Shown piece after piece: positions 9,074 through 44,933 of a stretch of DNA of 64,000 bases. This DNA is from Actinomycetes bacterium (GTDB lineage: Bacteria > Actinomycetota > Actinomycetes > DATJPE01), in assembly GCA_035506535.1 (NCBI GenBank), contig DATJPE010000063.1, forward strand, positions 227,903 through 291,902, read 5' to 3'. Position numbers and translations under genes: made by a program. The notes under the pieces were generated by a model. The model was given only the letters and a program-made list of their open reading frames with translations. It was not told the DNA's origin and made no database searches. Each line of letters begins with the position of its first letter. The first letter of the stretch is position 1.

Positions 9074-9074
9074 G

Positions 9075-29789: not shown

Positions 29790-30941
29790 TCACGTCGCCG
29801 TGACGGTGATCGTCTTCTTGGCGGTCTTCACCGTCGTCGAGCCGGCGTAGGTGGCCGTGATCGAGTGCTTGCCCTTCTTGAGCTTGGACAGGGTGTAGGT
29901 CGCCTTGCCCTTGCTCAGCGTCAGCGTCTTCAGCGTCTTCGTGCCGTCCTTGATCGTCACGCGACCCGTGGGCACAACGCCGGTCGCGGTCACGGTGATC
30001 GTGAGCTTGTCCTTGGCCGTGTGGCTCACGCTGCTGTGCGCCGCCTTGAGGCTCACCTTGCCGGTCGCCTTGACCACGGTCAGCGTGTACGTGGCCGTGC
30101 CCGCGAGGACCAAGCTGTCACCGCCGTAGCTGACCGTCAGGCTGTGCTTCTTGACGCTCAGCGTCTTGGGCAGCGACACCTTCGCGCTGCCCTTCGACAG
30201 CGTCGCGCTGCCGAGACTCTTGGTGCCCTCCTTGACCGTCACCGTTCCCGTCGGCGTCGTCCCGGTGGCGGTGACCTTGACCGACAGAGCACGCGCAGAG
30301 CCGTACGCCGGCTTCGTCGGCGATGCGCTCACCGTGAGCTTCGGCGCCACCAGGGTGGTCGTGGGGTAGATCTGCGTCCACGTGCCCGCCGTGGTGTCGA
30401 CCTGGATGTCGGCGGTGAAGTACGAGCCCGACGGCGGCTGGCCGATCCCTGACGTCCACACCCGCAGCTGATAGACGTTCGCGTAGCCCGCAGTGGTGTC
30501 GGTGTTCGGCTGTGCGCCGATGACCGACTGCAGGCTGCCGTCGGTCGGACCCAAGGTCACCACCGGGTTGGTGAAGCTGTTGATCGGCGCCGGCGCGGAG
30601 GCGTTGGGGTACTTGGTGGACGCCGACAGGGACGAGACCAGCCACTGGCCGGTGGGCTTCGCGTGGTCCGGCGTCGCCATGGCCAGCGTCGCCTTGATGT
30701 CGCCCTTGCGCCCCGGTGCCGACGCGCTCACGTAGGAGACGAACGGGACGTCGCTCAGCTTGCCGGACGTCACCTGCGCACCGGTGGAGTCGAACAGCGT
30801 CAGGGTGCCGAGCCCCTGCACGTCCGGCTCCCACGGGGGAGAGGAGTCGGCGACTGCGGGCGAGAACGTCAGGCCGGCGAGGCACAGCGCCGCGGCCAGC
30901 ACCGCGATCGAGCCGGTGAGCACCCATCGAAGAAGCTTCAC
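29790..30941 (-). CDS. Secreted protein 'C' (383 aa): signal peptide, shared N-terminal domain X, then two tandem Lys-rich bacterial Ig-like repeats.
   Basis: GTG at 30941, with GGAG 6 nt upstream ('VKLLRWVLTGSIAVLAAALCLAGLTFSPAVA'). Domain X 'DSSPPWEPDVQGLGTLTLFDSTGAQVTSGKLSDVPFV...PNASAPAPIN' is shared with proteins A and D. Repeats 'TGTVTVKEGTKSLGSATLSKGSAKVSL' and 'TGRVTIKDGTKTLKTLTLSKGKATYTL'. The N-terminal 285 aa of the ORF-track entry are rejected. Confidence 0.6.
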   Translation of the reverse strand: MKLLRWVLTGSIAVLAAALCLAGLTFSPAVADSSPPWEPDVQGLGTLTLFDSTGAQVTSGKLSDVPFVSYVSASAPGRKGDIKATLAMATPDHAKPTGQWLVSSLSASTKYPNASAPAPINSFTNPVVTLGPTDGSLQSVIGAQPNTDTTAGYANVYQLRVWTSGIGQPPSGSYFTADIQVDTTAGTWTQIYPTTTLVAPKLTVSASPTKPAYGSARALSVKVTATGTTPTGTVTVKEGTKSLGSATLSKGSAKVSLPKTLSVKKHSLTVSYGGDSLVLAGTATYTLTVVKATGKVSLKAAHSSVSHTAKDKLTITVTATGVVPTGRVTIKDGTKTLKTLTLSKGKATYTLSKLKKGKHSITATYAGSTTVKTAKKTITVTAT

Positions 30942-31075
30942 GACGTCTCCTCGTCGCCAGCCACGGTCACCCGTGGTCGTCGCTGTCGGTCCAGTCGCGC
31001 GCAGCCTCACGGCCACGGGCGAATGCCCGCCCTGCGCGAGGTTGCGGCCGGATGAACGCCCGACGTCCATCCGCG

Positions 31076-31984
31076 TCATGGGACGCGTTCCCTGTCCTGC
31101 TTGGCCGCTCTGGCCGTTCGCAGCCGCTGGACACCGAACACCAGCGCGCCTCCGACGATGGCTGCGGCGAGAGCGATCGCGACCCGGTTCTGGCTCGAGT
31201 CGGTCGGCGAGCCGGACGCGGTGTTCGAGTCGTTCCCGGCTGCGACCGCCGCGGACCCAGCCCCGCCGGAGGCGGCGGCAGCCGAGTGGCTCACGGCACT
31301 GTGTGAAGACGCGGTCACCGACGTCTTCGAGGTCTTGGCCTGAGCGCCTTCGCCCTTGACGGACACCGACGGGGCGGCGGACGGCAGCTTCGAGGAACCC
31401 AGCACCGCGGTCTCCAGGGAGACGCCCTTGCCGACGTTGCAGGCGACGCTCGCGCCCTTGACCACGTGCCAGGTGTTGCCGGTGACCTGGATGACCGTCG
31501 CCGGATAGGGAGTGGTGAGCGGTGGGGTGTTGGCGTTCGAGAAGTACATCCGCACCTGGAGCAACCCGTCCCACTGTGGTGGCGCCTGGCTGGTCAACGA
31601 GACGAGCGGCGCATCCCCGTAGGTCGCTTGGGCGATCGGGTGCTTGTTGTTGGTGTACGTCGACGCCGCGGTGAACTGCTTGCCGAACCACTCGCCGGGA
31701 TCGACGTCCTTTCGTGGCACGAAGACCCCGAGCGTCGCCTTCCCGAACTTTCCGGTGTATCCGGCGGGCGTCGCCACGCTGGAGATGGCCGTCCACACGA
31801 AGGGCACCGCGGTCAACGACCCGGAGGTGACGGCGTGGCCCTTCGCGTCGCAGAAGGCGATGCCGCCCTGCCAGTTCGGGTCCTTGAAGGGGATGTTGTC
31901 GGCCGCCGCGGAGCCGACCGAGAGCCAGGCACTGATCAGCGAAGTGATGCCAAGGACGCCGAGCACGGCGAGCGAGCGCTTCAC
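31076..31984 (-). CDS. Secreted protein 'D' (302 aa): signal peptide, divergent copy of domain X, and a C-terminal TM anchor with a basic tail.
   Basis: 'VKRSLAVLGVLGITSLISAWLSVGSAAA'. Then 'FKDPNWQGGIAFCDAKGHAVTSGSLTAVPFVWTA', which matches the PPWEPD...LFDS.G..VTSG.L..VPFV pattern. C-terminus 'VAIALAAAIVGGALVFGVQRLRTARAAKQDRERVP'. The start overlaps the stop of the upstream gene. Confidence 0.55.
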   Translation of the reverse strand: MKRSLAVLGVLGITSLISAWLSVGSAAADNIPFKDPNWQGGIAFCDAKGHAVTSGSLTAVPFVWTAISSVATPAGYTGKFGKATLGVFVPRKDVDPGEWFGKQFTAASTYTNNKHPIAQATYGDAPLVSLTSQAPPQWDGLLQVRMYFSNANTPPLTTPYPATVIQVTGNTWHVVKGASVACNVGKGVSLETAVLGSSKLPSAAPSVSVKGEGAQAKTSKTSVTASSHSAVSHSAAAASGGAGSAAVAAGNDSNTASGSPTDSSQNRVAIALAAAIVGGALVFGVQRLRTARAAKQDRERVP

Positions 31985-33123
31985 GGCCGGCCTCCCGGAG
32001 TGAGGACGGGCTCGCGCGACGCCGAGCCTCCCGTCGGGGGGCTGAAGTCGCCGGGGAGGTGCCTGCGCCGGCGTCTCCAGAACCAGCCGAGGCCGATCAC
32101 CACGAACAGCCCGACCACCAGCACCCATGGGATGGCCCAGAAAGTCACCGCCGCGGTCACCGGCTCGAGCCCGGGATCGACGTCACCGGGTGCCGCGGCC
32201 GCGTCGACACGGACGTGCGCGGTGAGGCGGCCCTGCGGCCGTACGCCGTGCACGTACGCCACCTCCGGGTAGGAGGCCCCGGGCAGGAGCAGGGGCAGGT
32301 CCGGCAGTTTGACCAGCAGCGCTTTGCCGAACGGGCCCTTCACCCACACTTGCTGGGATCCGCCGAGCTTGACGTTTCCCCCGTTGTGGACGACGAAGTG
32401 GACGGTGACGGTGCCTCGGGTGACGGGGTTGAGCGATCCGCCGTACGTCGCGCGCAGGCCGTGGATGGACAGGTTCGGGTGCAGCGGGCCGGACACGCGG
32501 AGGAACACCCGGGAGGCGGTCCGCTGGAGCAGCGTCTCGCGCTGACCGGACTTCGAGATCGCGATCGAGGACAGCGACGCGATGATGCCTCCTGCGTAGT
32601 CACCCGGAGGTGCGCCGGCGGGGACGCGCAGGGTCAGCGGGATGATGACCGCGCTGGGCCCCTTGACGGTGCGCGCCGGCACGCGGACGGTCGACGGACC
32701 GCTGAGAGTGATCCACCTCCCGAGGTCCTTGGGTGGGTCCGTCGGGGAGGCGAGCGCGAAGCCCCCGCTGGCGTCCGCGAAGGCTTGCACCGGATAGACG
32801 CTCAGGAGCAGCGGCCGGGTCGAGGCGTTGAGCACCGCCACTTCGTCGGTGAGCCGGGCGCCAGGTGTCGCCTGGTAGGTGAACGTCGGGCGACCGTCCT
32901 GCTTGTGGTGAGAGGCCGGCGCGACGCCGAAGGTGGCGACGAACTGGCCCTTGCCGGGAGCCGGTGACCCGACCGCGCCTTGCGAGGAGGCAGGGGAGGG
33001 ACTCGACGAGGGGCCCGAATCCGTGGCGACGGCATCAGCCATCGGCGAGGCCACGGCCGTGAGGAGACAGAGCGGGAGCGACAGGAGCAGCACGCGTCGG
33101 GCGCGTGCCCGGAGAGCGGACAT
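31981..33123 (-). CDS. Cell-surface protein with signal peptide and C-terminal TM anchor plus poly-Arg tail; DUF916/CscA-like topology.
   Basis: 'MSALRARARRVLLLSLPLCLLTAVASPMADAVA' signal. About 300 aa of beta-rich ectodomain. C-terminal 'VTFWAIPWVLVVGLFVVIGLGWFWRRRRRHLP'. Its position directly upstream of WxL-like genes parallels CscA. Sequence-level DUF916 membership is not verified. Confidence 0.45.
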   Translation of the reverse strand: MSALRARARRVLLLSLPLCLLTAVASPMADAVATDSGPSSSPSPASSQGAVGSPAPGKGQFVATFGVAPASHHKQDGRPTFTYQATPGARLTDEVAVLNASTRPLLLSVYPVQAFADASGGFALASPTDPPKDLGRWITLSGPSTVRVPARTVKGPSAVIIPLTLRVPAGAPPGDYAGGIIASLSSIAISKSGQRETLLQRTASRVFLRVSGPLHPNLSIHGLRATYGGSLNPVTRGTVTVHFVVHNGGNVKLGGSQQVWVKGPFGKALLVKLPDLPLLLPGASYPEVAYVHGVRPQGRLTAHVRVDAAAAPGDVDPGLEPVTAAVTFWAIPWVLVVGLFVVIGLGWFWRRRRRHLPGDFSPPTGGSASREPVLTPGGRP

Positions 33124-33172
33124 GGTCTTGGTGGTTTCCGTTCGCGAGGTGGCGGCCCGCGGACCGCCGGAG

Positions 33173-33198
33173 CGGGGCCGAGCTAGCGCCCGGCCCCG
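33173..33198 (-). terminator. Weak hairpin (8-bp GC stem) about 40 nt downstream of protein A.
   Basis: CGGGGCCG agctagcgc CGGCCCCG, between the stop at 33236 and the next start at 33123. Confidence 0.3.
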
Positions 33199-33235
33199 CC
33201 CGGTGGCCTCAGCCGCCGAACGTGGTGTTCGGAGT

Positions 33236-35044
33236 TCAGCCGACGGTGAAGACGATGGTTCCGTTGTAGGTGCCGTTGATGGTGTTGGTCGGGGCGTTGA
33301 TGGTCAGGACCCCGTGCGCCTGCAGGGTTCCGTTGCCGCCACCGGTGGTGGTGGCGAAGGTGTGCACGCCCTTGGCCCCGCCGGTTCCCGTGCCCGTTCC
33401 GGGCTGGACACCGGCCAGTGCCGCGTTGTCGGTGTAGCGGACAACAGTTGCGGAGTTGCTCTTCGCGTCGGTGGCCCACCCGGTGAGGCCCACGTTCTGG
33501 CCGTCGATGACGTTGTTCGTCCCGGCCGGGCCGGCCGCCGGGCCGGTCAGGTCGGAGGCGTTCAGCGTCGCCGTCCAGTTCGGGTCACCGGCCAGCGTGC
33601 TGGTGATGGTGAGGTCCGGACCGCTTGCGGCCGGGAACTGGGCCGACGTGGTCAGCAGCGAGCCGTCCGCCGCGAGCTGCATCGCGGGCAGGACGAACGG
33701 GTTCGTCGCGGTGTACGGCGTGGTGATGGTGATGTAACCGGCGCTCACCGCCACCTGGATGCTCTGGGTGTCGGAGCAGGACTGCCCGGCCGGGTAGGCG
33801 GTCGGGTCACCCGGGCAGGTCTGGGCACCGAGGTGGAAGGTCACCGCGGCGCTGGTACCGGTCCCGAAGCTTCCCGTCCCGATGTAGCTCGCCACCACCG
33901 AGTGGTCGCCGACGGGGCTGGTGCCGCCGTTCAGCGCGGTCGTAGTGAAGGAGAAGTTGCCCGAGGAGTCCGGCCCGGTGAGAGTGCCGGCGAGCGGGGT
34001 GGTCGACCCGTCCGCGAACAGCGACAGGGTGCCGGTCAGGGCCGGCGAGCCGGCAGCGGCGCTCACCTGACCGGTGAAGGTCTGGGTCGTGAACGCGGTC
34101 GTGCCGCTCGTGCTGGCGCGTGCCAGCGTGACCGTCGGGATGATCAGTGGCGGACCGACGTGCACCGTCACCGTGCCCTGCGAACCCTGGACCAGCGTGC
34201 CCGCGGTCGGAGTGAACACCGCCTTGTAAGCGTGGTCCGTACCATTGGTCACCGCAGGAGGCGTGGTCGTCGTCGTGTAGGTGCCTGTCCCGGAGGTGAC
34301 CGCCTGCGAGCTGCCGATCGGTGTGGTTCCGTCATAGAACTGCAGCGTTCCGTTGCTCGCCGGGGCGATCGTGGCCGTGAGCGTCACCGTCGGCGGCGTC
34401 CCGGTGAACGGACCGGGCGGGTTCGCGGTCAGCGTGGTCGTCGTGGTGGTGATGGACGGGTAGACGAGCGACCACGTGCCGGCCGAGGTGTTCACCGAGA
34501 TGTCCGCCGCCCAGAACTGCCCCGTGGAGACGCCCGGGCCGGAGTCGTACAGCCGCAGCTGGTAGATCCCTGCGTATCCCGCAGTGGTGTCGCTAGTTGC
34601 ACCGCCGATGAAGCTGGCGATGTTCCCGTCGGTCGCGCCGAGGGTCACCACCGGGAACTGGAAGCCGGTGCTCGACGTGCCGGTCAGCGGCGCCGGGGCG
34701 GTGCTCGACGGGAAGTTGGTCGAGGCCGAGGCGCTGCCGGTGTACCAGGCCGTCGAGTCCGGCTTGGTGTGGTCGGGCGCCGCGAAGACGAGGCTGGCCT
34801 TGGTGGCGCCGGCCTGCTTCGCCGACGTCGCTGCCGCGTAGTCCGCGATGTGGTTGAGGTTGGTCCCGCCGGTGAGGACGTTGCCGGCGGAGTCGTACAG
34901 GACGAGGCTGCCCTGGGAGTTCGGGTCCGGCTCCCACGGCGGGGTGGTGGCCGCGTTCGCGGCACCGGCTCCCGCGGCGAGCGTCGCGCCGATGATCGCG
35001 ACGGCGGCAGCCCCCGCGATCAAGGGCCTGATCGTGCGCTTCAT
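33236..35044 (-). CDS. Secreted protein 'A' (602 aa): signal peptide, domain X, Thr-rich Ig-like middle region, C-terminal WxL-like domain.
   Basis: 'MKRTIRPLIAGAAAVAIIGATLAAGAGAANA'. 'TTPPWEPDPNSQGSLVLYDSAGNVLTGG' (domain X). The C-terminal about 250 aa are paralogous to protein B and end '...NTINGTYNGTIVFTVG', with 'GLTGWATD' in the first WxL-like position. Confidence 0.6.
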   Translation of the reverse strand: MKRTIRPLIAGAAAVAIIGATLAAGAGAANAATTPPWEPDPNSQGSLVLYDSAGNVLTGGTNLNHIADYAAATSAKQAGATKASLVFAAPDHTKPDSTAWYTGSASASTNFPSSTAPAPLTGTSSTGFQFPVVTLGATDGNIASFIGGATSDTTAGYAGIYQLRLYDSGPGVSTGQFWAADISVNTSAGTWSLVYPSITTTTTTLTANPPGPFTGTPPTVTLTATIAPASNGTLQFYDGTTPIGSSQAVTSGTGTYTTTTTPPAVTNGTDHAYKAVFTPTAGTLVQGSQGTVTVHVGPPLIIPTVTLARASTSGTTAFTTQTFTGQVSAAAGSPALTGTLSLFADGSTTPLAGTLTGPDSSGNFSFTTTALNGGTSPVGDHSVVASYIGTGSFGTGTSAAVTFHLGAQTCPGDPTAYPAGQSCSDTQSIQVAVSAGYITITTPYTATNPFVLPAMQLAADGSLLTTSAQFPAASGPDLTITSTLAGDPNWTATLNASDLTGPAAGPAGTNNVIDGQNVGLTGWATDAKSNSATVVRYTDNAALAGVQPGTGTGTGGAKGVHTFATTTGGGNGTLQAHGVLTINAPTNTINGTYNGTIVFTVG

Positions 35045-35146: not shown

Positions 35147-36454
35147 TCACGGCCCGAACTGGGTGAAGGCGTACGTCGGGACGACGCCCGCGGCGGAGAT
35201 GAGCGACTGCGCGGAGCTGGTGGCGAAGTACGGCGCCCCGCCGGGCCCGTACGTCGTCCCGCCGATCGTCACGCAGCCCGTGGTGTGGCCCGCACCGGAG
35301 CACGGGTTGTAGAACAGCGTGCGCACCCAGTTGAGCGTGCCGCCGGGCTGGAACACCTTGGTGCTGTTGATGTCAGCGTCCCGGAAGTACAGGTAGAGGC
35401 TGCGGTTGATGTTGAACAGCGAGCCCGACTTCGGGGTCCCGGTCGTCCAGTACTTGACGTTCGGGGTCAACGTGGTGTTGCCGGTGCACACGCTGGAGTA
35501 GCCGACGCAGCTCGGGTCCTTGAAGTAGCCGATCCCCGACCCGCCGTCGTTAGCGGTGCCGTCGCTGAGCTTGCCGAGGTAGAGGTTGAGCCGCCCGCTG
35601 GACATCGGCTCGATGGCGTCCGTCGGAGCGCCGGACGCGTCGATCGCCTCGGGGTCGTTCTCCTCGACGTTGGTGACGCAGCTGCCGGGTGTCGTCACAC
35701 CGATCGCCGACAGGAACGACGTGCGAGTGCCGGAGCCGATCTGCGGCAGCAGCGGCTTGATCGTGTCACTCGAGGTCCCACCGAGGGTGGGGTCGTTCCA
35801 CGTCGTGACCGAGCAGTTGTAGATGGCCTGAAGCTGTGTCGTGGACAGCGCCACCGCGTTGGTCGTCGACGAGCTCAGCATCGCCAGGCCGTCCGTGCCG
35901 ACCGTGATGCTGTCCATCGTGTTGCCGCCCGACCCTCGGGCCGAGGACGCGCGGGAGAAGTCCGCCAGGTGCTTGGTGTCGGCGACCAGGAAGTTGAACC
36001 CCGCACCGGAACCGTTCGGTCGCTGCACCGGCTGGGTACCGGCGCGCAGGACGATCGTCGGGTTCAGCGTGCAGGGGACGTCGCCCGTGTGGGTCGTGTT
36101 CTGGTTGCCGGTCCCCTGGGTGGCTCCGGTGCCGGGTGCGCAGTTGTTCGTCGCGCTGTTGCCCGGCGTGTTGCCCACGCCCTGGGGGCTGTAGGCCAAC
36201 CGCGCGTTCGCGTCGGCGGTGGCGTCGAAGCTCACCAGTTTGTTGGCGTTGCCGAGGGTGTTGTAACCGGTGTCGCCGAGGTGGTCCCCGTCGGCGACGA
36301 AGTCGACGAGATTCTGCAGCGTGTCGGATCCGACCCCGACGACGTCCTTGCTTGACGGTGCGTAGTCGGCCTGTGCGGCCGTGGTCGTCAGAGCGAGCGA
36401 CGCGGTGATCACACCGACCGTCGCCGCGCCGAGCAAGACCTTCTTGCGTCGCAT
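35147..36454 (-). CDS. PstS-family periplasmic phosphate-binding protein paralog (type 2 PBP), secreted.
   Basis: ATG at 36454 ('MRRKKVLLGAATVGVITASLALTTTAAQA'). 'VGVGSDTL', 'LSTTQLQAIYNCSVTTWNDP', 'IGSGTRTSFL' parallel PstS motifs ('LSGQTLAKIFTNKITNWDDP', 'GSGTSF'). The upstream 49 aa of the ORF are rejected. Confidence 0.6.
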   Translation of the reverse strand: MRRKKVLLGAATVGVITASLALTTTAAQADYAPSSKDVVGVGSDTLQNLVDFVADGDHLGDTGYNTLGNANKLVSFDATADANARLAYSPQGVGNTPGNSATNNCAPGTGATQGTGNQNTTHTGDVPCTLNPTIVLRAGTQPVQRPNGSGAGFNFLVADTKHLADFSRASSARGSGGNTMDSITVGTDGLAMLSSSTTNAVALSTTQLQAIYNCSVTTWNDPTLGGTSSDTIKPLLPQIGSGTRTSFLSAIGVTTPGSCVTNVEENDPEAIDASGAPTDAIEPMSSGRLNLYLGKLSDGTANDGGSGIGYFKDPSCVGYSSVCTGNTTLTPNVKYWTTGTPKSGSLFNINRSLYLYFRDADINSTKVFQPGGTLNWVRTLFYNPCSGAGHTTGCVTIGGTTYGPGGAPYFATSSAQSLISAAGVVPTYAFTQFGP

Positions 36455-36629
36455 GTGCAGGTCCCTTCCCGAAGTGGCAGGTGGAGCGCCCGTAGGCTCT
36501 CGGGTCCAGGTCGACGCGCACAGGCGTCCTGCGCTAACGCGAGATGAACCTCGGGCTGCCATCGGCTCGCATTCGGGCACAAGGGATCGCCGGTCCAACA
36601 ACGGGTGAACGAGGCCTCACGTGCGGGCG

Positions 36630-37598
36630 TCACATGAGGTTCGGCATCAGCTGGACGGCCACCGAGGTGACCCCCCAGAGGCAGGCCAGCAGGGCGGGGA
36701 CACCCACCACCCAGGTCTGCCAGGTGCCCCAGTAGACCCACGAGACGACGTACGTCGATGCCACGGCGACCAGGAGGAACAGCCACAGCACCAGCTGCAC
36801 GAGGACGCTGGTGTCGATGCTCATCGCCTGTTCTGCTGCCGGGACCGCGGCCGGACGACCGGGTGGTGCCGGGACGGACGTGCCGGCCAGGTCGGCGTCG
36901 ACGTAGACGACGCCGGTCGGGGCCCACACCGAGCGCCAACTCGCACCCTCGGCGCTGACCAGGGTCAACCGCCCATGCCCCGGCTGCACCGGCTGGGGAA
37001 AGCGGTCCCCGGCCCGCCTGATGTCGATGACGCGGTAGGTGAAGCGGCCCTGCCCCGTGACGACCGCGATCGCGTCCCCGCGGGCGAGGGTGCCGACGTT
37101 CTCGAACGGTCCCCCGAAGGTGCTCTCCCGGCCGTAGACGACACTGACGCCGGCCTGGCCCGGCAGCGGGGTGTCGCGACGGTGCCCGGGGCCGGCGATC
37201 AGGTCGCCGGACGTGGTGCCCTCGACGACGACCAGGTCGTGCAGCTCCAGGGCGGGGATGCTCAACAGGGCCACCGGCGCACCCGGGCGGATCAGTCCGC
37301 CCAGCGGCGCGGTCTCCTCGGCCAGCTGCTCGCGCAGTGTGTCGTAGCCAACGTGCTGGTCACGCCACTCCTGGAAGGAGCTCAGGACGACCCCGTAGAT
37401 CACCGCCCAGGCTGCGACCACCGCGGTGCACACGATCACGCCGGTGACGACCCGGCGGCGTGGAGTCGGTCGCGGACGGGCGGGCAGCCGCAGCCTCTTC
37501 GGCAGGCGCACGTGGACGCGCCGCCGCCGCCTGGCCTCGGGGACGACGTCGGGGGGATCCTCGACGACGGTCACCGGCGACCGAGCCCGCTGTTCCAC
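36630..37598 (-). CDS. Sortase-fold protein with catalytic His and Cys substituted (probable pseudo-sortase). N-terminal TM plus two C-terminal TM helices.
   Basis: Aligns residue-for-residue with the bona fide SrtE at 20208-21032: 'LPGQAGVSVVYGRESTFGGPFENVGTLARGDAIAVVT' vs 'LPGEVGNFAVAGHRATNGQPLANIPRVTVGSYVYVRT' (His to Arg), and 'GRLTLVSAEGASWRS' vs 'ARLTITTCNPRWAS' (Cys to Ala). Starts within or at the end of the upstream 909-aa gene. Confidence 0.6.
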   Translation of the reverse strand: MEQRARSPVTVVEDPPDVVPEARRRRRVHVRLPKRLRLPARPRPTPRRRVVTGVIVCTAVVAAWAVIYGVVLSSFQEWRDQHVGYDTLREQLAEETAPLGGLIRPGAPVALLSIPALELHDLVVVEGTTSGDLIAGPGHRRDTPLPGQAGVSVVYGRESTFGGPFENVGTLARGDAIAVVTGQGRFTYRVIDIRRAGDRFPQPVQPGHGRLTLVSAEGASWRSVWAPTGVVYVDADLAGTSVPAPPGRPAAVPAAEQAMSIDTSVLVQLVLWLFLLVAVASTYVVSWVYWGTWQTWVVGVPALLACLWGVTSVAVQLMPNLM

Positions 37599-40300
37599 AC
37601 CGCCGCGACCAGCGCAAGCACCACGAGGACCAGCAGCGCCGGGAACGCCAGCGCGGCCGGCCCCGGCCGCACGCCGACCGTCTTGCCGGTGAGGACCACC
37701 GCGATCTTCGACGGACTCGGCGACGACGACGGCGACGGCTTCGGTCTGGCGGAGGAGGAGCTCGTCGAGGGCGCGGCTGCGGTTGAAGGGCTCCCCGCGG
37801 CCGACGGCTCACCGCCGGTTGTGCCGGTCCCCGCCTCGCTCGTGGTGGAGGGCGTGGGACTGACGGATGGCGTCGGCGTCGGCGTCGGGGCCGGGTCGCC
37901 GTTGACGTAGGGCACCACGCCCTGCTGCTGCTCGACGGCCTGTGCGGCCGTCCGGGTGTAGGCCGCGAGACCGGCCAGATGGTTGGCCGCGGTCATCGGC
38001 AGGTAGCCGACGGGCAGCTGCCCTTGGTCGAGACCCGGCTGCTGACCTACCCCCGCCGCGAAGCGCAGTAAGTCGGCGTAGTGCGCGGCGTCGGCGGCGG
38101 GGAGCCCCTGCGTCGGGACGTCGAGGGACAGCACGAGGATGCCCGGGTACGCCTGCTCGCCGGCCGCGCGCGTGCGCAGCGCGGCGTACGGGACCGGCCA
38201 CGTCCCGAGCTGCTTGTCTGGCTCGAGCATCGCCGCGGCGGCCCGCAGCCCGTCGTCGCTTGGTCCGACGAACGTGCGGCCGGTCGCGTCGGTGAGCGCC
38301 GTCCCGCTCCCGCTGCTGACGTGGGTCTGCAGCTGGGCGACGTTGAGCTGGTAGCGCTCCGCGTCCGCCAGAGACACCAGCCCGAGGATGAAGCGGTACC
38401 CCGGGTTCTCCCGGCCGAGCGCGACCAGCTTCTGGTTCTGCTGGCCGGCGTTCTGGCAGTTGATCTGGGAGTTGGCGATGTCGAACTGCATGTTCAGGCT
38501 GATCGTGGCCGGGTTCGACACCGGTGCGGCGACGAGCGGCAGCCAGGGGGTCGGGCTGAGCGCGAGGCACGGGTTTCCAGCCTGCAGACCCTTGGGGATG
38601 AACGTGTCCCGTAGCGGCCACGTCGAGACCGGGAGCTTGATCCCCTTGTACGCGGGGTTGACGACCATCCCCCATGGGTCGGGGCGCCCGTCGAGCCACG
38701 CACGCGCCTCCGGGTCGGCGTTGATGTAGCTGGTCAGCGCGGTCAGCACGTCGGAGTCGCTCGACATGATCGCCAGCGTCGCGGCCGGCTCGAGGTTGTA
38801 GCCGAGGCTCACGACTCCGGGGTTGAGCGCGCGGAACTCTGGGTCGTGGCCGATGTCGATCGGGTTCCCCGACAGCGCCTTGTCCTCGCTCTTCATCGTC
38901 GGGTTCGAGGGATAGGACTCGGTGAGCAGCTTGGCGAGCAGCCGCGGAGTCAGCTTGAGGTCTGGATGGACCCCGCCGCTCTGGTCGTCCACCGAATAGG
39001 CGATCGCGAACCCGCTGACGGCGACTGGCGCCTGCACCACCGGCTGGGGGAAAGGTTCGTCCGGCGGCCCGGCCTGGACGGCTGCTTCGACACTGCCCGC
39101 GCGCAGCAGGTTCTTCGCCTGCGGCTCGCTGGTCTGCACGTGCTGGAACTTGAACAGCTTGGGGTCGAGACAGAACCTCGGCGCCCACTGCTCCGTGGCC
39201 TGCGCGAGCGCCTCGGAGCCGTACAGGTAGATCGGCTGTCCGTTGCTGACCAGGTTGCAGACCCCCGCGGACGGGGCGAAGGTCAGCGGGACCGAGATCC
39301 GGTTGCGCCAGTTGGACGCGCTCCACCACAGCTCACCGCTGACCGACAGGTCCTCGCTCTCCCAGGTCCCGTAGTTGTAGTCGCCCGGTGCGTACTTGCC
39401 GGTCGCCGCGCACTCCGACTCGATGGTCGGGACCAGCGAGGGGTCGGGCGCCTCCGAGGCCGGTAGCTGCGCACCCGCGGCGTCACAGCTGATGCCCATG
39501 ATCGGGATGATCACCAGCGAGCAGGTGACCGTGTCCGAGCAGCCCATGGACGCGTTGGAGTCCACCGTCTGCACCACGAACTTGATCGAGCCCGCCCCGG
39601 TCTTGTCGCTCGCGCCGTACGTCGTGTTCCCCGGCTGCAGCGACTCGTCCGCGTTGGCCGCCTCGGGGGCCATGCCGGCGCAGCCGAGGGAGCCGCCCGG
39701 GTAGACGGTGCCGTTGGCGGCCACGAAGGGGATCCAGTGCTGCACGCCGGCGTCCGAGCCGGCGCACGCCTTCGGCAGCGGGCTGGGCTCGCCGACCTTC
39801 TCGGCGCGGTCGGCCGTCGTGGCGTAGCGATCCATCCGGTACGGGGGGTAGTTGAACACGTAGTCGGACTGGAAGCGTTCGGCGGGCGTCTGGGTCCAGC
39901 AGGTCTGCGGTGACAGCCGCTTCGAGGCCGGCACCGACGTGCTGTCGATGCCGCGGCACTCCATGACGACGACGGGGTACTCCTGCTGCGCGGCGAGCGC
40001 GGAGTTCTGGTCGCCCACCAGCCCGCCGGTCGGGTGCGCGCCCGACCAGCTCACGTTGATCGTCTGCCGGTCGCGAAGCTGCTCGGTGTCGTCGACGTGA
40101 ACGGTGACGCTACGGCTGTCGACCGGCACGTCCTGGCCCGCCACGAGGTTCACCCGGTCGATGGTCTTGGTCTTGGCGAAGCCGGTGTCGGCGGAACCGG
40201 CCGCCCGGGCCGTACCGGCCGACGCCGGCAACGCCAGCCCCGCGGCCGCGAGGAGCGCGACCAGCGCGAGGCCGAGCCTTGACGGCAGCTTCCGCGTCAT
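37571..40300 (-). CDS. Large secreted protein (909 aa): signal peptide, Cys-rich N-terminal region, central PstS-like PBP-fold region, Pro/Thr/Ser linker, C-terminal TM anchor.
   Basis: The ATG at 40300 overlaps the pstS stop (ATGA). 'MTRKLPSRLGLALVALLAAAGLALPASA'. 'YLYGSEALAQATEQW', 'LTPRLLAKLLTESYP', 'VAVSGFAIAY' echo PstS 'IQGSGSSWSANAVNQW', 'LSGQTLAKIFTNKI', 'AIGYDEYSY'. C-terminus '...PTPTPTPSVSPTPST...ALLVLVVLALVAAVWNSGLGRR'. The N-terminal 460 aa of the 1369-aa ORF-track entry are out-of-frame overlap with pstS and are rejected. Confidence 0.6.
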   Translation of the reverse strand: MTRKLPSRLGLALVALLAAAGLALPASAGTARAAGSADTGFAKTKTIDRVNLVAGQDVPVDSRSVTVHVDDTEQLRDRQTINVSWSGAHPTGGLVGDQNSALAAQQEYPVVVMECRGIDSTSVPASKRLSPQTCWTQTPAERFQSDYVFNYPPYRMDRYATTADRAEKVGEPSPLPKACAGSDAGVQHWIPFVAANGTVYPGGSLGCAGMAPEAANADESLQPGNTTYGASDKTGAGSIKFVVQTVDSNASMGCSDTVTCSLVIIPIMGISCDAAGAQLPASEAPDPSLVPTIESECAATGKYAPGDYNYGTWESEDLSVSGELWWSASNWRNRISVPLTFAPSAGVCNLVSNGQPIYLYGSEALAQATEQWAPRFCLDPKLFKFQHVQTSEPQAKNLLRAGSVEAAVQAGPPDEPFPQPVVQAPVAVSGFAIAYSVDDQSGGVHPDLKLTPRLLAKLLTESYPSNPTMKSEDKALSGNPIDIGHDPEFRALNPGVVSLGYNLEPAATLAIMSSDSDVLTALTSYINADPEARAWLDGRPDPWGMVVNPAYKGIKLPVSTWPLRDTFIPKGLQAGNPCLALSPTPWLPLVAAPVSNPATISLNMQFDIANSQINCQNAGQQNQKLVALGRENPGYRFILGLVSLADAERYQLNVAQLQTHVSSGSGTALTDATGRTFVGPSDDGLRAAAAMLEPDKQLGTWPVPYAALRTRAAGEQAYPGILVLSLDVPTQGLPAADAAHYADLLRFAAGVGQQPGLDQGQLPVGYLPMTAANHLAGLAAYTRTAAQAVEQQQGVVPYVNGDPAPTPTPTPSVSPTPSTTSEAGTGTTGGEPSAAGSPSTAAAPSTSSSSARPKPSPSSSPSPSKIAVVLTGKTVGVRPGPAALAFPALLVLVVLALVAAVWNSGLGRR

Positions 40301-42006
40301 GACTGCCTCCTGCGTCGACGGGAGAGGTAGACCGCGAGGATCGGCGGAAGGACGATCAGCGCGAGGATCTCCAGTGCCGCGACCGATCCGAGCACCGACG
40401 TGAGGTTCTGCTGGCGGTAGCCGGCGAGCTGGGTGGGAACGCCGGTCACTGGGTCCGCCGCGGCCGCCACCTGGGTGTCGACCACCTGACCGGTGTCCGG
40501 GTTCACCGACGGGCTGGCGCCCGTCGAGCCGGTCACCGCCGTCGTCCCGCTCTGGCCGGTGCCCGTGGACGACGACGCGGCCGTCTTCGCCCCGCCAGAC
40601 GTCGCAGTGCTGGACCCCTTCGTGGCCGTCGACCCGCTCGACGTGGTGGAGCCCTGTCCCGGGGAGGAGGTCTGCGGGGCCTTGCCGTTCCTGGGGTTGC
40701 CGTTGGCGATGCCCGCGTTGGCGTCGCAGGGCCCGGCGCCCGACTTGTCGCACGCGGGTGGCTTGGGGGCGATCTCGGCCAGGTAGTTGCGGTTCGGCTG
40801 GCCGGCGATGAACGTCGGGTTGTGGCAGGTCGACACGTTGCGTTGCGTGAGGTCCACGCCCGGGTCGGCCGTCTTGAGCTTGGCCGTCTGCGCGAAAGAG
40901 GCCTGGACGAGGTTGATCGGCAAGGGCGAGTAGCCGATCGGGCCCATTTCCGCCTGGCCCTGGCATACGGAGTAGTAGAGGAAGTCGGCGAGCGTCTGCC
41001 GTTTCGCGGTCGTCATGCGCGGGTCGGTCGGTGACGTTGGAATGATCATGTACGAGTACGACGAGATGGCGTACGTCCTGGGGTCGGGGTTCGTGTAGAC
41101 CTGGTCGAGGTTCTGCAGCAGGTAGTCCTTCGACGACTTGTCCATGTTGATCTGCGCCTTGGTGAGTGCGACCGCGACGTTGTACTGCGTGGGCGCCGTG
41201 AAGTAGCCCGCGGCGTTCTCGACCTTGGCCACTGGGAAGTTCTTCGCGAGGGCATAGGAGTACTCGTCGTAGCCGATCGCCCCGTTGGCGGCGCCCGAGG
41301 AGATGAAGTTCATGACCCCGTCGGAGCCGTTCTGGGCGATCTGCCCGCCCTTGCGCGGGAAGTACTCGGTCAGACCGGACGTGCCGAGGAACGGCCGCCA
41401 GATCGAGGGGTACTGCTTGTCCAGGTAGCGGGTGAACTGCGCGGTCGAGCCGGAGCCCTCGGAGTGGACGACCGGGATGATGGGCAGGGACGGCAGCGCA
41501 TGGCCGTTGTTGTCCGCCGTGATCTCGGGGTCGTCCCAGTTGGTGATCTTGTTCGTGAAGATCTTGGCCAGCGTCTGGCCAGACAGCCGGAGGTTGCGCA
41601 CCAGCTGACCGGCCACCTTGATCTGGTACGGGAACGCCGTCCCGCCCGCCACGATCGGCAGGTAGGCGTACGGCCGGCACTGCGGCGTGCAGGGCGTGTC
41701 CGCCTCGCCGGTCACCGGGTCCTTGCCCTGGTAGCCGATGTCACTGACCGCGAAGTCCGTCGTGCGGTAGGCGAAGTCCTTGCGCCCGATCGCCGAGCCG
41801 CTCGCGGTGAAGACGACCTGCAGGCCGTTGGCCTGGACGTCGGCGATCCACTGGTTGACGGCGTTGGCGCTCCAGGACGAGCCCGACCCTTGGATGAGGG
41901 CGTGGCTCGCCGCCGCGTCCGCCGGAGCGGACCCGAAGAGCAGGCTCACCAGCACGCTCACCACCGCTGCCGCGACGGTGAGCAGGGGGTATCGGCGTCG
42001 GTTCAC
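40297..42006 (-). CDS. pstS: Phosphate ABC transporter substrate-binding protein PstS, atypical: non-lipoprotein signal peptide, about 200-aa Gly/Ser/Thr-rich C-terminal extension and a C-terminal TM anchor.
   Basis: 'ALIQGSGSSWSANAVNQW', 'SGSTAQF', 'GAIGYDEYSYAL' are PstS motifs. No Cys in the signal peptide ('MNRRRYPLLTVAAAVVSVLVSLLFGSAPADA'). C-terminus '...LEILALIVLPPILAVYLSRRRRRQS'. The GTG start overlaps the pstA stop (GTGA). Confidence 0.8.
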   Translation of the reverse strand: MNRRRYPLLTVAAAVVSVLVSLLFGSAPADAAASHALIQGSGSSWSANAVNQWIADVQANGLQVVFTASGSAIGRKDFAYRTTDFAVSDIGYQGKDPVTGEADTPCTPQCRPYAYLPIVAGGTAFPYQIKVAGQLVRNLRLSGQTLAKIFTNKITNWDDPEITADNNGHALPSLPIIPVVHSEGSGSTAQFTRYLDKQYPSIWRPFLGTSGLTEYFPRKGGQIAQNGSDGVMNFISSGAANGAIGYDEYSYALAKNFPVAKVENAAGYFTAPTQYNVAVALTKAQINMDKSSKDYLLQNLDQVYTNPDPRTYAISSYSYMIIPTSPTDPRMTTAKRQTLADFLYYSVCQGQAEMGPIGYSPLPINLVQASFAQTAKLKTADPGVDLTQRNVSTCHNPTFIAGQPNRNYLAEIAPKPPACDKSGAGPCDANAGIANGNPRNGKAPQTSSPGQGSTTSSGSTATKGSSTATSGGAKTAASSSTGTGQSGTTAVTGSTGASPSVNPDTGQVVDTQVAAAADPVTGVPTQLAGYRQQNLTSVLGSVAALEILALIVLPPILAVYLSRRRRRQS

Positions 42007-43091
42007 TTGGCACGGTCCCTGGCGAGGAAACGGGTGATGGCGAACAGGACGAGGACGAGCAGCAGCAGGAGCGCCGCCGCGCCGTAGCCCCTCGCGATGT
42101 ACAGCGGCTCACCGCTGCGCACCGCGGAGAAGATGAACAGCGGGAGGGAGTTCATCGGCTCGCTGAAGGGGTTGGCGTTGAAGAAGGTCGACGCGCCCGA
42201 GACGATGAGCAGCGGGGCCGTCTCCCCGGCGATGCGGGCGATGCCGAGGATCAGCGACGTCGCCATCCCGGCCTTGGCGGTCGGGAGGACGACGCGTCGT
42301 ACGGTGTCCCACTGCGACGCGCCCAGCGCCAGGCCGGCCTCGCGCAAGCCTCCCGGCACCACGCGCAGCACCACCTCGGCGGAGCGGGCGATGATCGGCA
42401 GCATGGTGACGGTGAGGGCGACCGACACCGCGAAGCCCGTCCGGGGAAAGCCGAACCCGATCACGAGGGTGACGTAGACGAACAGGCCGGCGAGAACGTC
42501 GGGCAGCGCCGTCATCGCCTCGACCACGGTCCGGACCGTGCGCGAGAGCCGGCCCCCCACCTCGGTCATGAACACGGCGGTGCCGATCCCCAGCGGCAGC
42601 GCGAACAGGGTCGCGATCCCGACCTGGATCGCGGTGCCCACGATGGCGTGCAGCACCCCGCCCTGCGTCAACGGTGAGGTCGGCCGCACGCCCGACATGT
42701 CGTCACGGAAGAAGTTGAGGTGGTGCAGGGCCGGCCAGCCCTTGACGAAGACGAACACCACCGTGCTGGTCAGCGCCAGACCAACGGTGACGGCCGCGCC
42801 GGTGACCACAGCGGCCGCCAGTCGGTCCCGCACGGTCGGCCACGGGTTGGAGATCCGGGACACGAGGGTGTACATGAGCAGGAAGACCAGGTACCAGCTC
42901 ACGACGAACCCGACGACGCCGCTGAACGGCAGCACCCGCTCGAACAGGAGCCAGACGAGGGAACCCGAGCCGACGATGCTGCCGGCGACCGACGCCCGGT
43001 CGTCGAGCGTGCGGGCACGCAGCGGTCGTGGGATCTCGACGGGGGCCTCCGTGTCGACCTCGGCGGCCTCCTGGTCCACCATCGCCGTCAT
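42003..43091 (-). CDS. pstA: Phosphate ABC transporter permease PstA.
   Basis: 'ILGIARIAGETAPLLIVSGAS' matches the PstA EAA-loop region ('AIARIAGETAPLLFTA' in E. coli). ATG 'MTAMVDQEAAEV' at 43091. The 5' part of the 631-aa ORF is rejected. Confidence 0.85.
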   Translation of the reverse strand: MTAMVDQEAAEVDTEAPVEIPRPLRARTLDDRASVAGSIVGSGSLVWLLFERVLPFSGVVGFVVSWYLVFLLMYTLVSRISNPWPTVRDRLAAAVVTGAAVTVGLALTSTVVFVFVKGWPALHHLNFFRDDMSGVRPTSPLTQGGVLHAIVGTAIQVGIATLFALPLGIGTAVFMTEVGGRLSRTVRTVVEAMTALPDVLAGLFVYVTLVIGFGFPRTGFAVSVALTVTMLPIIARSAEVVLRVVPGGLREAGLALGASQWDTVRRVVLPTAKAGMATSLILGIARIAGETAPLLIVSGASTFFNANPFSEPMNSLPLFIFSAVRSGEPLYIARGYGAAALLLLLVLVLFAITRFLARDRAK

Positions 43092-43102
43092 CTCGGATCT
43101 CC

Positions 43103-44119
43103 TCAGATCTCCGTCGCCGCGCCGCTGCGGCTTCGGTTGACGAAGATGGCAGCGACCGTGTTCACGCCCAGGGTGATGACGAACAGCACGAAGCCGGCCG
43201 TGAGGAGTGCGGAGAGCTGGGCGCTCGTGGCCTCCCCGAAGCGACCGGCGATGAGCGCCGAGGTCGTCTCCGTGCCGACCGTGAGAATCTTGATCTTGAT
43301 GTCGAACGCCGGCGAGATGATGAGCAGGACGGCGATGGTCTCCCCGAGCGCGCGCCCGAGCGCCAGCATGGTGCCGCCGATCACCCCTCCACGTCCGAAG
43401 GGCAGCACGACCGCTCGGATCACGCCCCACCGCGTCGCGCCGAGCGCGTACGCCGCCTCGCGCTCGCCGACCGGCGCCTGCGCGAAGACGCCTCGCATGA
43501 CGGCGCACGCGAGCGGGATCACCATCATCGACACCGCCAGGCCCGCGATGAACGCGGAGGCGGTGTACTGCGACTGCGCCCACGAGGCCGCCCGCGGGTC
43601 GGTGTCCACGGCGAAGACCGGGATCCAGCCGAGGTACTCCGACAGCCACCGCGCGACCGTGATGGCGTGCGGTTGCAGGAGGAAGAAGCCCCAGAGCCCG
43701 AAGATGATGCTCGGGACGGCAGCCATCAGGTCGATGAGCGAGGTCAGGGTGGCCTGCAGCCGCGGCGGCGCGTACTCGCTGATGTACAGCGCCGTCAGCA
43801 GCGCCAACGGGAAGCCGACGGCGAGGGCGACCAGGGCCACCTCGACGGTCCCCACGAGCACCGCGGAGATGCCGACGATGTCCCGCTCGGGCTGCCACTG
43901 GCTCTGGGTGAAGAAGTGGATGCCGTACCGGCGAAGCGTGGGGATCGCCTGGTAGCCGAGGAACAGCCCGATGGCGCCGGTGAGGACCAGCACGAAGGAG
44001 CCGATCGCCCGTACGGTCCCCCGGAAGACGCTGTCCTTCGCCGGCCGCGCCGGGTCGATGTCCCGGGGGACGTCCGGGCCCTCGGCCGACGGCCAGAGGT
44101 GCTCAGCCGAAGCGACCAT
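43103..44119 (-). CDS. pstC: Phosphate ABC transporter permease PstC.
   Basis: '[19 protein letters not shown]', '[13 protein letters not shown]', '[16 protein letters not shown]' correspond to E. coli PstC 'ELLAAIPSIVYGMWGLF', 'AAVMRDVFEQTP', '[11 protein letters not shown]'. Start overlaps the pstB stop. Confidence 0.85.
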
Positions 44120-44933
44120 GGACGTAATCGCTGGTTCGGGGGTCGCGGGGGTTGCCGAAGATCTGCTCGGTGGAGCCGGCCTCGACGATCCCGCCCGGCG
44201 TGCCCTGCTCGGCGAGGAAGAACGCGCACTGCTGGGAGACGCGCGCGGCCTGTTGCATGTTGTGGGTGACGATGACGATCGTCACGTCGCGCCGCAGCTC
44301 GGCGATGGTCTCCTCGATCCGGCGGGTCGACGTCGGGTCCAGGGCGGAGCACGGCTCGTCCATGAGCAGCACGTCCGGCTCGACCGCGAGCGAGCGGGCG
44401 ATGCACAGCCGTTGCTGCTGCCCTCCGGAGAGCGCACCGCCGGCGGAACCCAGCCGGTCCTTCGCCTCGGTCCACAACCCCGCCCGGCTCAGGCAGCGCT
44501 CGACGAGGTCGTCCTTGTCGTGCCTGGCGATCTTGGTTCCGGTCAGCTTGAGACCCGCCAGGACGTTCTCGGCGATCGACATGGTCGGGAACGGGTTCGG
44601 CTTCTGGAAGACCATCCCGATGCGCTTGCGGGTCTCGGTGATACGACGTCCGGCGTCATAGATGTCGACCCCGTCGAGCAGCACCTGACCGGCCAGCTGC
44701 GCCGAGGGCACCAGCTCGTGCATCCGGTTGAGGGTGCGCAGGAACGTGGACTTCCCGCACCCCGAGGGTCCGATGAGGGCGGTGACCGTCCCCGGGGGCA
44801 TGGACAGGGACACCCGTTCCAGCACCTTGTGGCTGCCGAACCACGCCGAGACCGCCACCGCGTCGAGGTGGGCGCCCCGGATCTGGCCGGTCACGTCGGG
44901 CAGGCGGATGGTCGTGTCGCTGACCGAGCTCAT
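44103..44933 (-). CDS. pstB: Phosphate import ATP-binding protein PstB.
   Basis: '[17 protein letters not shown]', '[19 protein letters not shown]', '[13 protein letters not shown]', '[15 protein letters not shown]' and C-terminal 'DYVHGRFG' are all PstB hallmarks. Confidence 0.9.

Follow-up and report, generated by a model that had tools for sequence, protein, structure and literature searches.

Background

Sortases have been treated as uniformly active cysteine transpeptidases. Here we describe a sortase-like protein, pSrt (for pseudo-sortase), encoded on a 64,000-nt stretch of contig DATJPE010000063.1 (hereafter the window), and set it beside the described systems that it most resembles. 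Structurally, its nearest relatives are the class D and class E sortases - C. perfringens SrtD, S. coelicolor SrtE1 and SrtE2, S. avermitilis SrtE and C. diphtheriae SrtF. Like them, pSrt has an N-terminal membrane anchor and carries the scaffold motifs VVEGT, G-x-GH, LPG-x-x-G and R-L-T-L, and, as with class E sortases, for which the signal is LAxTG, its partner gene carries an LAxTG-type or LAxTG-derived tail. Unlike them, pSrt has lost the catalytic His, Cys and Arg, which are replaced by R, by A or S, and by V, A or T respectively, while the S3-subsite Tyr of class E has given way to Arg or Lys. It also adds two C-terminal transmembrane (TM) helices and an invariant PNL C-terminus.

In genomic architecture, the nearest counterpart is the heme-uptake locus isdCDEF-srtB-isdG of staphylococci and Bacillus, in which sortase B lies (PMC8225981). 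There, as in the window, a sortase-family gene is part of an uptake operon with an ABC importer and surface receptors, and a dedicated partner with a non-canonical signal is encoded next door. However, SrtB of the isd locus is an active transpeptidase, which covalently links IsdC to peptidoglycan, whereas pSrt cannot perform thiol catalysis, its partners keep a TM anchor, and the nutrient is probably phosphate rather than heme. Strict adjacency of a sortase homologue to a single cognate target is also a property of the class GN 'marine' sortase pair (TIGR03784, to which pSrt has a weak match), but class GN sortases keep the catalytic Cys and His and are found outside ABC transporter operons. 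Further afield, the dead-protease pseudoenzymes - iRhoms and Derlins among rhomboids, EnvC and NlpD among LytM peptidases - have kept client binding and act as adaptors or regulators of membrane or envelope clients. The underlying concept is shared, yet folds and systems are unrelated, and the likeness is one of analogy only.

An earlier note on this DNA, made from the sequence without database searches, had taken pseudo-sortases to be essentially undescribed. This agrees with our full-text literature searches for pseudo-sortases, inactive sortases and a sortase together with PstS, which found no description. A 2026 study of Actinoplanes missouriensis lists five sortase candidates, all of 184-792 aa and of classes E/F, and no protein of ~315 aa with the architecture of pSrt is among these five (PMC13251363).

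A sortase fold without the catalytic residues

The pSrt gene and its parts are as follows, with residues numbered throughout as in the longest open reading frame (ORF) of 322 aa.

36630..37574 (-): pSrt coding sequence, 314 aa from a probable GTG start at 37574; the longest ORF, to 37598, has 322 aa
37320..37463 (-): residues 46-93, N-terminal TM helix running into an extracellular stalk helix, as a helix of the AlphaFold2 (AF2) model
36885..37289 (-): residues 104-238, sortase beta-barrel ectodomain
37128..37130 (-): codon CGG, R157, at the catalytic His position
36951..36953 (-): codon GCC, A216, at the catalytic Cys position; TLVSA replaces TLxTC
36909..36911 (-): codon GTC, V230, at the catalytic Arg position on strand beta8
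36651..36812 (-): residues 263-316, C-terminal TM hairpin, with W285, R289 (consensus), W290, G291, W296, P301 and W308 conserved
36633..36644 (-): extreme C-terminus P319-N320-L-M, family consensus LLPN[LV]x, nearly invariant, predicted to lie on the outer membrane face

We place the probable start at GTG 37574, giving 314 aa, because residue 9 is the start column in 91 of 120 homologues (alignment of the best matches) and because an identical database protein (P0001) begins at the same residue.

Homology to sortases is readily detected. The Pfam Sortase model PF04203 matches pSrt with an E-value of 5e-11 and 42.9 bits (cutoff 26.6), over profile positions 1-84 of 125 only, and on the NCBIfam class E model NF033747 pSrt scores 65.2 bits against a cutoff of 160; the genuine class E sortase of the window (SrtE, 20208-21032) scores 230.1 bits on the class E model. 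BLASTP between the two proteins gives 36% identity over 99 aa (E 2e-12) and pairs VVYG-R157 of pSrt with AVAG-H of SrtE, leaving the Cys block unaligned. The Cys and Arg positions were placed by means of a profile of 105 family members set against PDB sequences. In this alignment, the family's LtLvtA216 has as its counterparts MTIVTC in 4d70 (C. perfringens SrtD) and LTLVTC in 5go6 (S. avermitilis SrtE), and V230 stands opposite the catalytic Arg of 5go6 (SHRLIVW). Since V230 occupies the Arg position, in addition to R157 and A216 at the other two, all three catalytic residues are replaced in pSrt. The earlier note had claimed a sortase fold with His changed to Arg and Cys to Ala, on the strength of a position-by-position alignment with the window's SrtE. 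Both substitutions are borne out, and the loss of the Arg is added to them; the alignment itself is recovered by BLASTP for the His block, whereas the Cys block lies beyond its reach and depends on the profile against PDB sortases.

The replacements extend across the family. Among 268 diverse members, the His position (site 157) is occupied by R in 252, K in 15 and H in one, and the Cys position (site 216) by A in 161, S in 78, G, V and T in eight each and L in two, with no Cys at all; at the Arg position (site 230) the residue is V, A or T family-wide. The 84 genomic copies that we collected repeat this pattern. When 352 relatives were checked for Cys, none had it at position 216 and 14 had one anywhere in the ectodomain. 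The two Cys of the window's pSrt, 57 and 306, are both within TM helices. We looked for an alternative Cys/His pair that might restore an active site and rejected the idea, as the ectodomain of the window protein has no Cys and the sole conserved His, H139, belongs to the scaffold motif G-x-G-H-[YF], which active class D/E sortases have as well. The neighbouring position 140, which corresponds to the S3-subsite Tyr of class E (GHY), is R in 81, K in 20 and L in 14 of 120 homologues; in class E sortases this Tyr of the beta3/beta4 loop (Tyr229 of SrtE1) recognises the Ala of LAxTG (PMC5148588).

Could pSrt still be an enzyme that works by other chemistry, for example through Ser216 or some other nucleophile together with R157, D234 or H139? 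The Ser and Thr residues seen at site 216 (78 and 8 of the 268) would be compatible with this, as would the fact that H139, R157, R194 and D234 are nearly invariant polar residues of the family. Yet most members have Ala, Gly or Val at 216, which leaves no conserved nucleophile there, H139 is accounted for by the GH[YF] scaffold motif, and the ectodomain is devoid of Cys. We regard retained catalysis as very improbable.

The AF2 model of pSrt, made with the family alignment (mean pLDDT 90.5, pTM 0.82), has the eight-stranded beta-barrel of the sortase fold, at residues 108-238. An Arg-rich cytoplasmic N-terminus precedes helix 46-93 in the sequence, and at the other end of the protein the model has two further TM helices, 263-290 and 292-316, which are absent from sortases, and had already been recognised in the earlier note. 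Judged by these comparisons, pSrt descends from a class D/E-like sortase, is embedded in the membrane and is catalytically dead, and it should not be filed as a sortase enzyme, since it fails on the catalytic features as well as on the class E cutoff.

The LLPN[LV]x end deserves separate mention. Its P is kept in 259 and its N in 255 of the 268 members, and its predicted location is the outer membrane face, directly beneath the sortase domain. It resembles a sorting motif of the LPNT type, and might fill the protein's own groove in the manner of a class C sortase lid.

Distribution and conservation of the family

A search of 5.8 billion proteins with pSrt returned more than 2,000 matches, the best 120 of which are all ~320 aa long and 47-60% identical, and in an exhaustive profile search 608 clusters (at 50% identity) reached E<=1e-30, the match running from end to end in nearly all of them. 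Relatives are encoded by at least 521 species-level genomes across Actinomycetota, carriers including Nocardioides, Dactylosporangium, Cellulomonas, Janibacter, Aeromicrobium, Actinophytocola, Planotetraspora, some Streptomyces and Acidimicrobiia. The family is old, large and conserved, and it is apparently unstudied, its members being entered in databases as 'sortase', 'sortase A' or 'hypothetical protein'. As a member of this family, pSrt, which the earlier note had called a sortase paralogue, is not a recent paralogue of the window's SrtE.

Among 105 family sequences, which are about 50% identical, 17 columns are invariant. The columns of highest conservation occur in three places. First, they are found in strands beta4, beta7 and beta8, the bearers of the former catalytic residues. 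These are the strands that line the substrate groove in active sortases. Second, they occupy the inter-strand stretches 136-150 (GPGHRRDTxLPGQxG), 194-201 (RxAGDPxP) and 221-227. Third, and specific to this family, they comprise W285, R289, W290, G291, W296, P301 and W308 of the hairpin, together with P319 and N320 at the C-terminus.

These data bear on the trivial explanation that pSrt is a decaying pseudogene, or that its substitutions are sequencing errors, for which the missing catalytic residues are the only argument. In 84 of 84 fetched loci, the ORF is intact, does not vary in length and ends in ...LLPN[LV]x, so that decay of orthologues, which the earlier note had named as a refuting outcome, is seen in none of them, and the invariant columns are hard to square with decay. 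Sequencing error, another point raised there, is excluded because the replacements of R157 and A216 are family-wide and because their codons, CGG and GCC, are each two substitutions away from a codon for His or Cys. We consider this explanation vanishingly unlikely. Being an enzyme-family homologue from which the catalytic residues are gone and which is under purifying selection, pSrt is a pseudoenzyme in the operational sense of the term.

A fixed component of a Pst-like uptake cluster

On the minus strand of the window, the gene order is pstB, pstC, pstA, a gene for a PstS-like protein of 569 aa (PBP569), a 909-aa gene (g909), pSrt, a gene for a second substrate-binding protein, and then surface-protein genes. 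The elements of the core are as follows.

44103..44933 (-): pstB-like ATPase
43103..44119 (-): pstC-like permease
42003..43091 (-): pstA-like permease, start approximate
40297..42006 (-): PBP569, PstS-like substrate-binding protein, 569 aa, with a C-terminal linker, VPTQL motif, TM helix and RRRRR tail
37571..40300 (-): g909, secreted protein of 909 aa, its stop overlapping the start of pSrt
37679..37690 (-): window copy of the g909 juxtamembrane motif, T871-G-K-T874
36528..36610 (-): two degenerate PHO-box-like pairs of 11-nt direct repeats, between pSrt and the 435-aa gene
35147..36454 (-): second, divergent PstS/PBP_like_2 protein, 435 aa, with a signal peptide and no TM anchor

Every gene junction from pstB to pSrt overlaps. 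The start of PBP569 overlaps the stop of pstA (GTGA), its own stop overlaps the start of g909 (ATGA), and GTG 37574 of pSrt overlaps the TGA stop of g909, again as GTGA; a spacer of 175 nt then separates pSrt from the second binding-protein gene. The chain pstA-PBP569-g909-pSrt is thus joined by 4-nt start/stop overlaps at 42004-42006, 40298-40300 and 37572-37574 (-), which points to tight translational coupling along the cluster, and the overlap between g909 and pSrt (ATGA or GTGA) recurs in 55 of 77 related loci. The proposal that pSrt has been retained in translational linkage with the 909-aa gene therefore holds, both in the overlap and in the intact ORFs of all 84 loci.

Assignment to the Pst type rests on NCBIfam equivalog models, of which PstC (238.8 against a cutoff of 196.45) and PstA (205.2 against 193.45) are passed, while PstB (336.3 against 343.2) and, for PBP569, the PstS model TIGR00975 (187.5 against 205) fall just under their cutoffs. 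PBP569 aligns with X. citri PstS (E 1e-28) and keeps the GSxW, GS, xSD and SEGSGS motifs, with His in place of one PstS Arg. It has kept most of the phosphate-ligand motifs, phosphate being the putative ligand.

Co-occurrence was scored by tblastn of the window proteins against 84 related loci, where most loci that lack core genes are short contigs. We found g909 in 77, pstB in 73, the PstS-like protein in 72, each permease in 70 and the second binding protein in 67. The earlier note had named 'WxL-like' genes and the 909-aa gene as candidates for co-occurrence; the latter association is confirmed, whereas the 'WxL-like' genes occur in 20-30 of the 84 loci and have no WxL Pfam match, the constant partners being the Pst-like transporter and PstS-fold proteins. 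In loci of the Streptomyces and Actinoplanes type, the order is pstC-pstA-binding protein-g909-like-binding protein-surface protein-pSrt-pstB, which puts pSrt between transporter genes. We conclude that pSrt is a fixed component of a Pst-like ABC uptake cluster, with a constant position in it.

The intergenic repeats offer a clue to regulation. In the clade of the window, 11-nt direct repeats of the GTTCAnnnnnnGTTCA type stand downstream of pSrt, ~100 nt upstream of the second binding-protein gene. Examples from related loci are GTTCATCCCTCGTTCATGG and GTTCATACGTCGTTCACTCC, with sites at L003 11086, L004 11074, L008 10845, L012 6124, L018 9352 and others; the two pairs in the window are GTTCACCCGTT-GTTGGACCGGC and GTTCATCTCGC-GTTAGCGCAGG. 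Direct repeats of this type and length are the form taken by actinobacterial PhoP PHO boxes. Across all loci, PHO-box-like sites with at most one mismatch number 83 on the gene strand and 33 on the other, and they concentrate upstream of pstC (29), the second binding-protein gene (12), the DUF916-like gene (5), pstB (3) and several Big_3_5 genes. This pattern of sites suggests Pho-regulon (PhoP) control of the whole cluster, which is probably induced by phosphate starvation.

The upstream partner and its sorting-signal-like tail

The product of g909 comprises a Cys-rich and beta-rich N-terminal domain (about 40-330), a PstS-type fold (about 340-800), a disordered linker (824-879), a TM helix (881-906) and an RR tail. 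Its AF2 model has a pLDDT of 89.3, with a disordered linker of ~55 residues, and a Foldseek search matches the PstS half to M. tuberculosis PstS-1 (1pc3; E 7e-11, TMt 0.75). No Pfam domain was found in g909, and its homologues are annotated as 'hypothetical' everywhere. Given the PstS fold of g909 and the PstS-like PBP569, the cluster encodes three PstS-like proteins, two of which are C-terminally TM-anchored. The N-terminal domain has no detectable family, structural matches being confined to the PstS half; the N-terminal half contains many invariant Cys, for example C115, C134, C207, C254, C260, C272, C297, C348 and C377.

Both g909 and PBP569 end in a linker, a short motif, a hydrophobic helix and an Arg-rich tail, which is the layout of a cell-wall sorting signal, and the gene immediately upstream of pSrt always ends in such a motif-TM-Arg tail. 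Across 119 close homologues of g909, the juxtamembrane motif is [V47/L29/T17][G84/A28]-x-[T105]-x-[G/A]-[V/L/I], followed by Pro in 107 of the 119, the TM helix, and then G-R (R in 113 of the 119); examples are VARTG, VAKTV, LGNTA and MPATQ. The pattern [LVMI][PAG]xT occurs at a fixed distance from the C-terminus in 105 of 190 g909 tails, where shuffling gives 59.5 on average and 76 at most, and the tails of the PstS-like protein have a motif of their own, P[TV][EDQ]L, in 25 of 69 against a shuffle mean of 0.29. Read in this way, the g909 motif appears to be a degenerate LAxTG-like relic, which follows the LAxTG pattern of class E except at the Gly position, where any residue may stand. The TM anchor of the PBP569 type is itself unusual, with P-P or P-G in 66 of 69 tails and an acidic or polar L-E-L-L in 33 of 69, which suggests specific intramembrane pairing with another subunit.

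In 14 loci, g909 is not the immediate neighbour, and the gene directly upstream of pSrt encodes a Big_3_5 surface protein whose sorting signal is canonical, either LAxTG or LPxTG (for example, ...GGLASTGSQIALFSG...RYGRRNG). These canonical-signal loci, which we call type 2 as opposed to the g909-coupled type 1, are of the Streptomyces, Actinoplanes and Acidimicrobiia type, with pstB following pSrt (L051, L058, L061, L064, L071, L076 and L081-L084, at about 8100-9750; L052, L041 and L078). The earlier note had described the neighbours of pSrt as ending in TM anchors instead of sorting motifs: the anchors are present, but a plain absence of sorting motifs cannot be upheld in view of the relic in g909 and the canonical LAxTG directly upstream of pSrt in type 2. 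All 14 type-2 pSrt lack the catalytic Cys and His, and in all 14 the stretch between 216 and 230, in the beta7/beta8 region, has 11 residues and residue 232 is R or H, whereas g909-coupled pSrt have a 15-residue loop between 216 and 230 and Tyr at 232. The type of partner signal and the region of pSrt beside the former active site thus vary together.

Two further explanations for pSrt must be weighed against this evidence. One is that it is a structural or accessory subunit, or an assembly factor, of the Pst-like transporter, with a barrel that docks, or that binds peptidoglycan or lipid II, the tails of neighbouring proteins being irrelevant. The gene is always inside the transporter operon and adjoins pstB in Streptomyces-type loci, the TM hairpin and the PNL terminus are the most distinctive of the conserved features, and sortases in general bind a second substrate derived from lipid II, all of which would fit. 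However, the constant motif-TM-Arg tail of the upstream gene is left unexplained, as is the way in which the 216-230 length and residue 232 track the signal type, and so is the high conservation of the substrate-groove regions. We therefore think a pure transporter role unlikely, although it has an appreciable chance of being correct.

The other is that pSrt modulates the housekeeping class E sortase. As a decoy, it would protect partner signals from being cleaved, so that the partners stay in the membrane; as a holdase, it would offer those signals to SrtE. In favour of this, enzymes are often regulated by inactive homologues, pSrt of type-2 loci accompanies a protein with a canonical LAxTG, and the window itself encodes a genuine SrtE. 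Against this, the motif of the type-1 partner, including that of the window, is without Gly and is not an expected SrtE substrate, so that in type-1 loci there would be nothing to shield. Moreover, srtE is 16 kb away in a different context and has no genomic linkage with pSrt. Modulation of SrtE accordingly strikes us as improbable.

Two database proteins have g909 and pSrt fused in a single ORF: P0159 (1211 aa; the same locus as L065, from an uncultured Microthrixaceae metagenome-assembled genome) and P0357 (1118 aa). Fusion is topologically possible because the C-terminus of g909 and the N-terminus of pSrt are both cytoplasmic. We considered natural fusions as 'Rosetta stone' evidence and rejected them for that purpose, as P0357 is visibly frameshifted and P0159 could be explained by one indel at the 4-nt overlap.

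A possible role as a sorting-signal binder

What, then, might a sortase without catalytic residues be doing in a phosphate-type uptake cluster? We favour, tentatively and at a little under an even chance, a function in which pSrt binds sorting signals without catalysis and thereby tethers phosphate-binding proteins of the cell surface to the Pst-like transporter. Under this proposal, the substrate-binding groove of the ancestral sortase would have been kept while the chemistry was lost, and pSrt would bind, without cleaving it, the juxtamembrane sorting-signal relic of g909, and perhaps that of the TM-anchored PstS-like protein too. The added TM hairpin would pack against the TM helix of the partner, against the permease, or against both. 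Long-linkered surface phosphate-binding proteins could in this way stay membrane-anchored and be held beside the PstCA permease, a non-covalent tether taking the place of covalent cell-wall anchoring. We infer such a scaffold or signal-binding role, which the earlier note had also proposed, from context, with all of which it agrees.

Several observations weigh against the tether. The g909 motif is degenerate, a strict regular expression finding ~55% of tails, and the window copy reads TGKT. In the groove itself, the class E S3 Tyr is Arg or Lys and the substrate-contacting catalytic Arg is gone, and with both replaced pSrt cannot reproduce exactly the way in which SrtE binds LAxTG. Where the partner has a canonical LAxTG (type 2), that partner is probably a substrate of the housekeeping sortase, and there is no obvious need for pSrt there. 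The fusions P0159 and P0357 are probably assembly indels. Lastly, the PHO-box pattern, allowing two mismatches, is not enriched window-wide (22 matches against 19.9 expected) and the window copies are degenerate, so that the pattern in the window derives its weight from the conserved upstream position in related loci alone.

A more general version is possible though doubtful: pseudo-sortases may form a class of putative sorting-signal receptors, in which covalent cell-wall anchoring has been swapped for non-covalent membrane retention, and which would assemble a Pho-regulated phosphate-capture complex of giant, long-linkered PstS-fold proteins around a Pst-type importer.

Accessory surface-protein genes

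Downstream of the second binding-protein gene lies a block of surface-protein genes, spanning 29790..35044, which is outside the conserved core.

33236-35044 (-): 602-aa Big_3_5-like protein
31981-33123 (-): 380-aa DUF916-like protein with a TM tail
31076-31984 (-): 302-aa protein with a TM tail, its start in a GTGA overlap
29790-about 30941 (-): Big_3_5 protein

We treat the Big_3_5, DUF916-like and 302-aa genes as accessory because they are present in only 20-45 of the 84 loci. A separate 4-nt overlap at 31982-31984 (-) joins the DUF916-like gene to the 302-aa gene. Membership of these neighbours in a WxL/Csc cluster is unsupported by family models: the 602-aa protein has no WxL Pfam match, and WxLIP_PGBD reaches 17 bits on the 380-aa protein against a cutoff of 27.3 (E 0.006). 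The 602-aa and Big_3_5 proteins share an N-terminal domain of ~190 aa that starts with PPWEPD and is without a Pfam model (33% identity, 374 aligned positions, E 9e-38), and the 302-aa protein starts with a similar segment (IPFKDPNWQGG).

Implications

Within the sortase superfamily, the pSrt family forms a branch of pseudoenzymes whose membrane architecture is new and whose genomic role is fixed. As databases label its members 'sortase' or 'sortase A', hundreds of actinobacterial genomes carry a mis-annotated dead member. The hypothesis of a signal-binding function is directly testable because there are cultured carriers, namely several Streptomyces, Nocardioides, Cellulomonas humilata ATCC 25174, Janibacter, Dactylosporangium and Aeromicrobium.

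Should pSrt prove to be a sorting-signal-binding adaptor, an anchoring enzyme would have been turned into a scaffold, and the means by which monoderm bacteria tether substrate-binding proteins to their ABC importers would be enlarged by a new one. Soil and freshwater Actinomycetota would also possess a previously unrecognised surface complex, probably induced by phosphate starvation. If the class-wide version is true, the degenerate [VL][GA]xT tails would be the first sorting signal to have turned into a permanent protein-protein docking motif.

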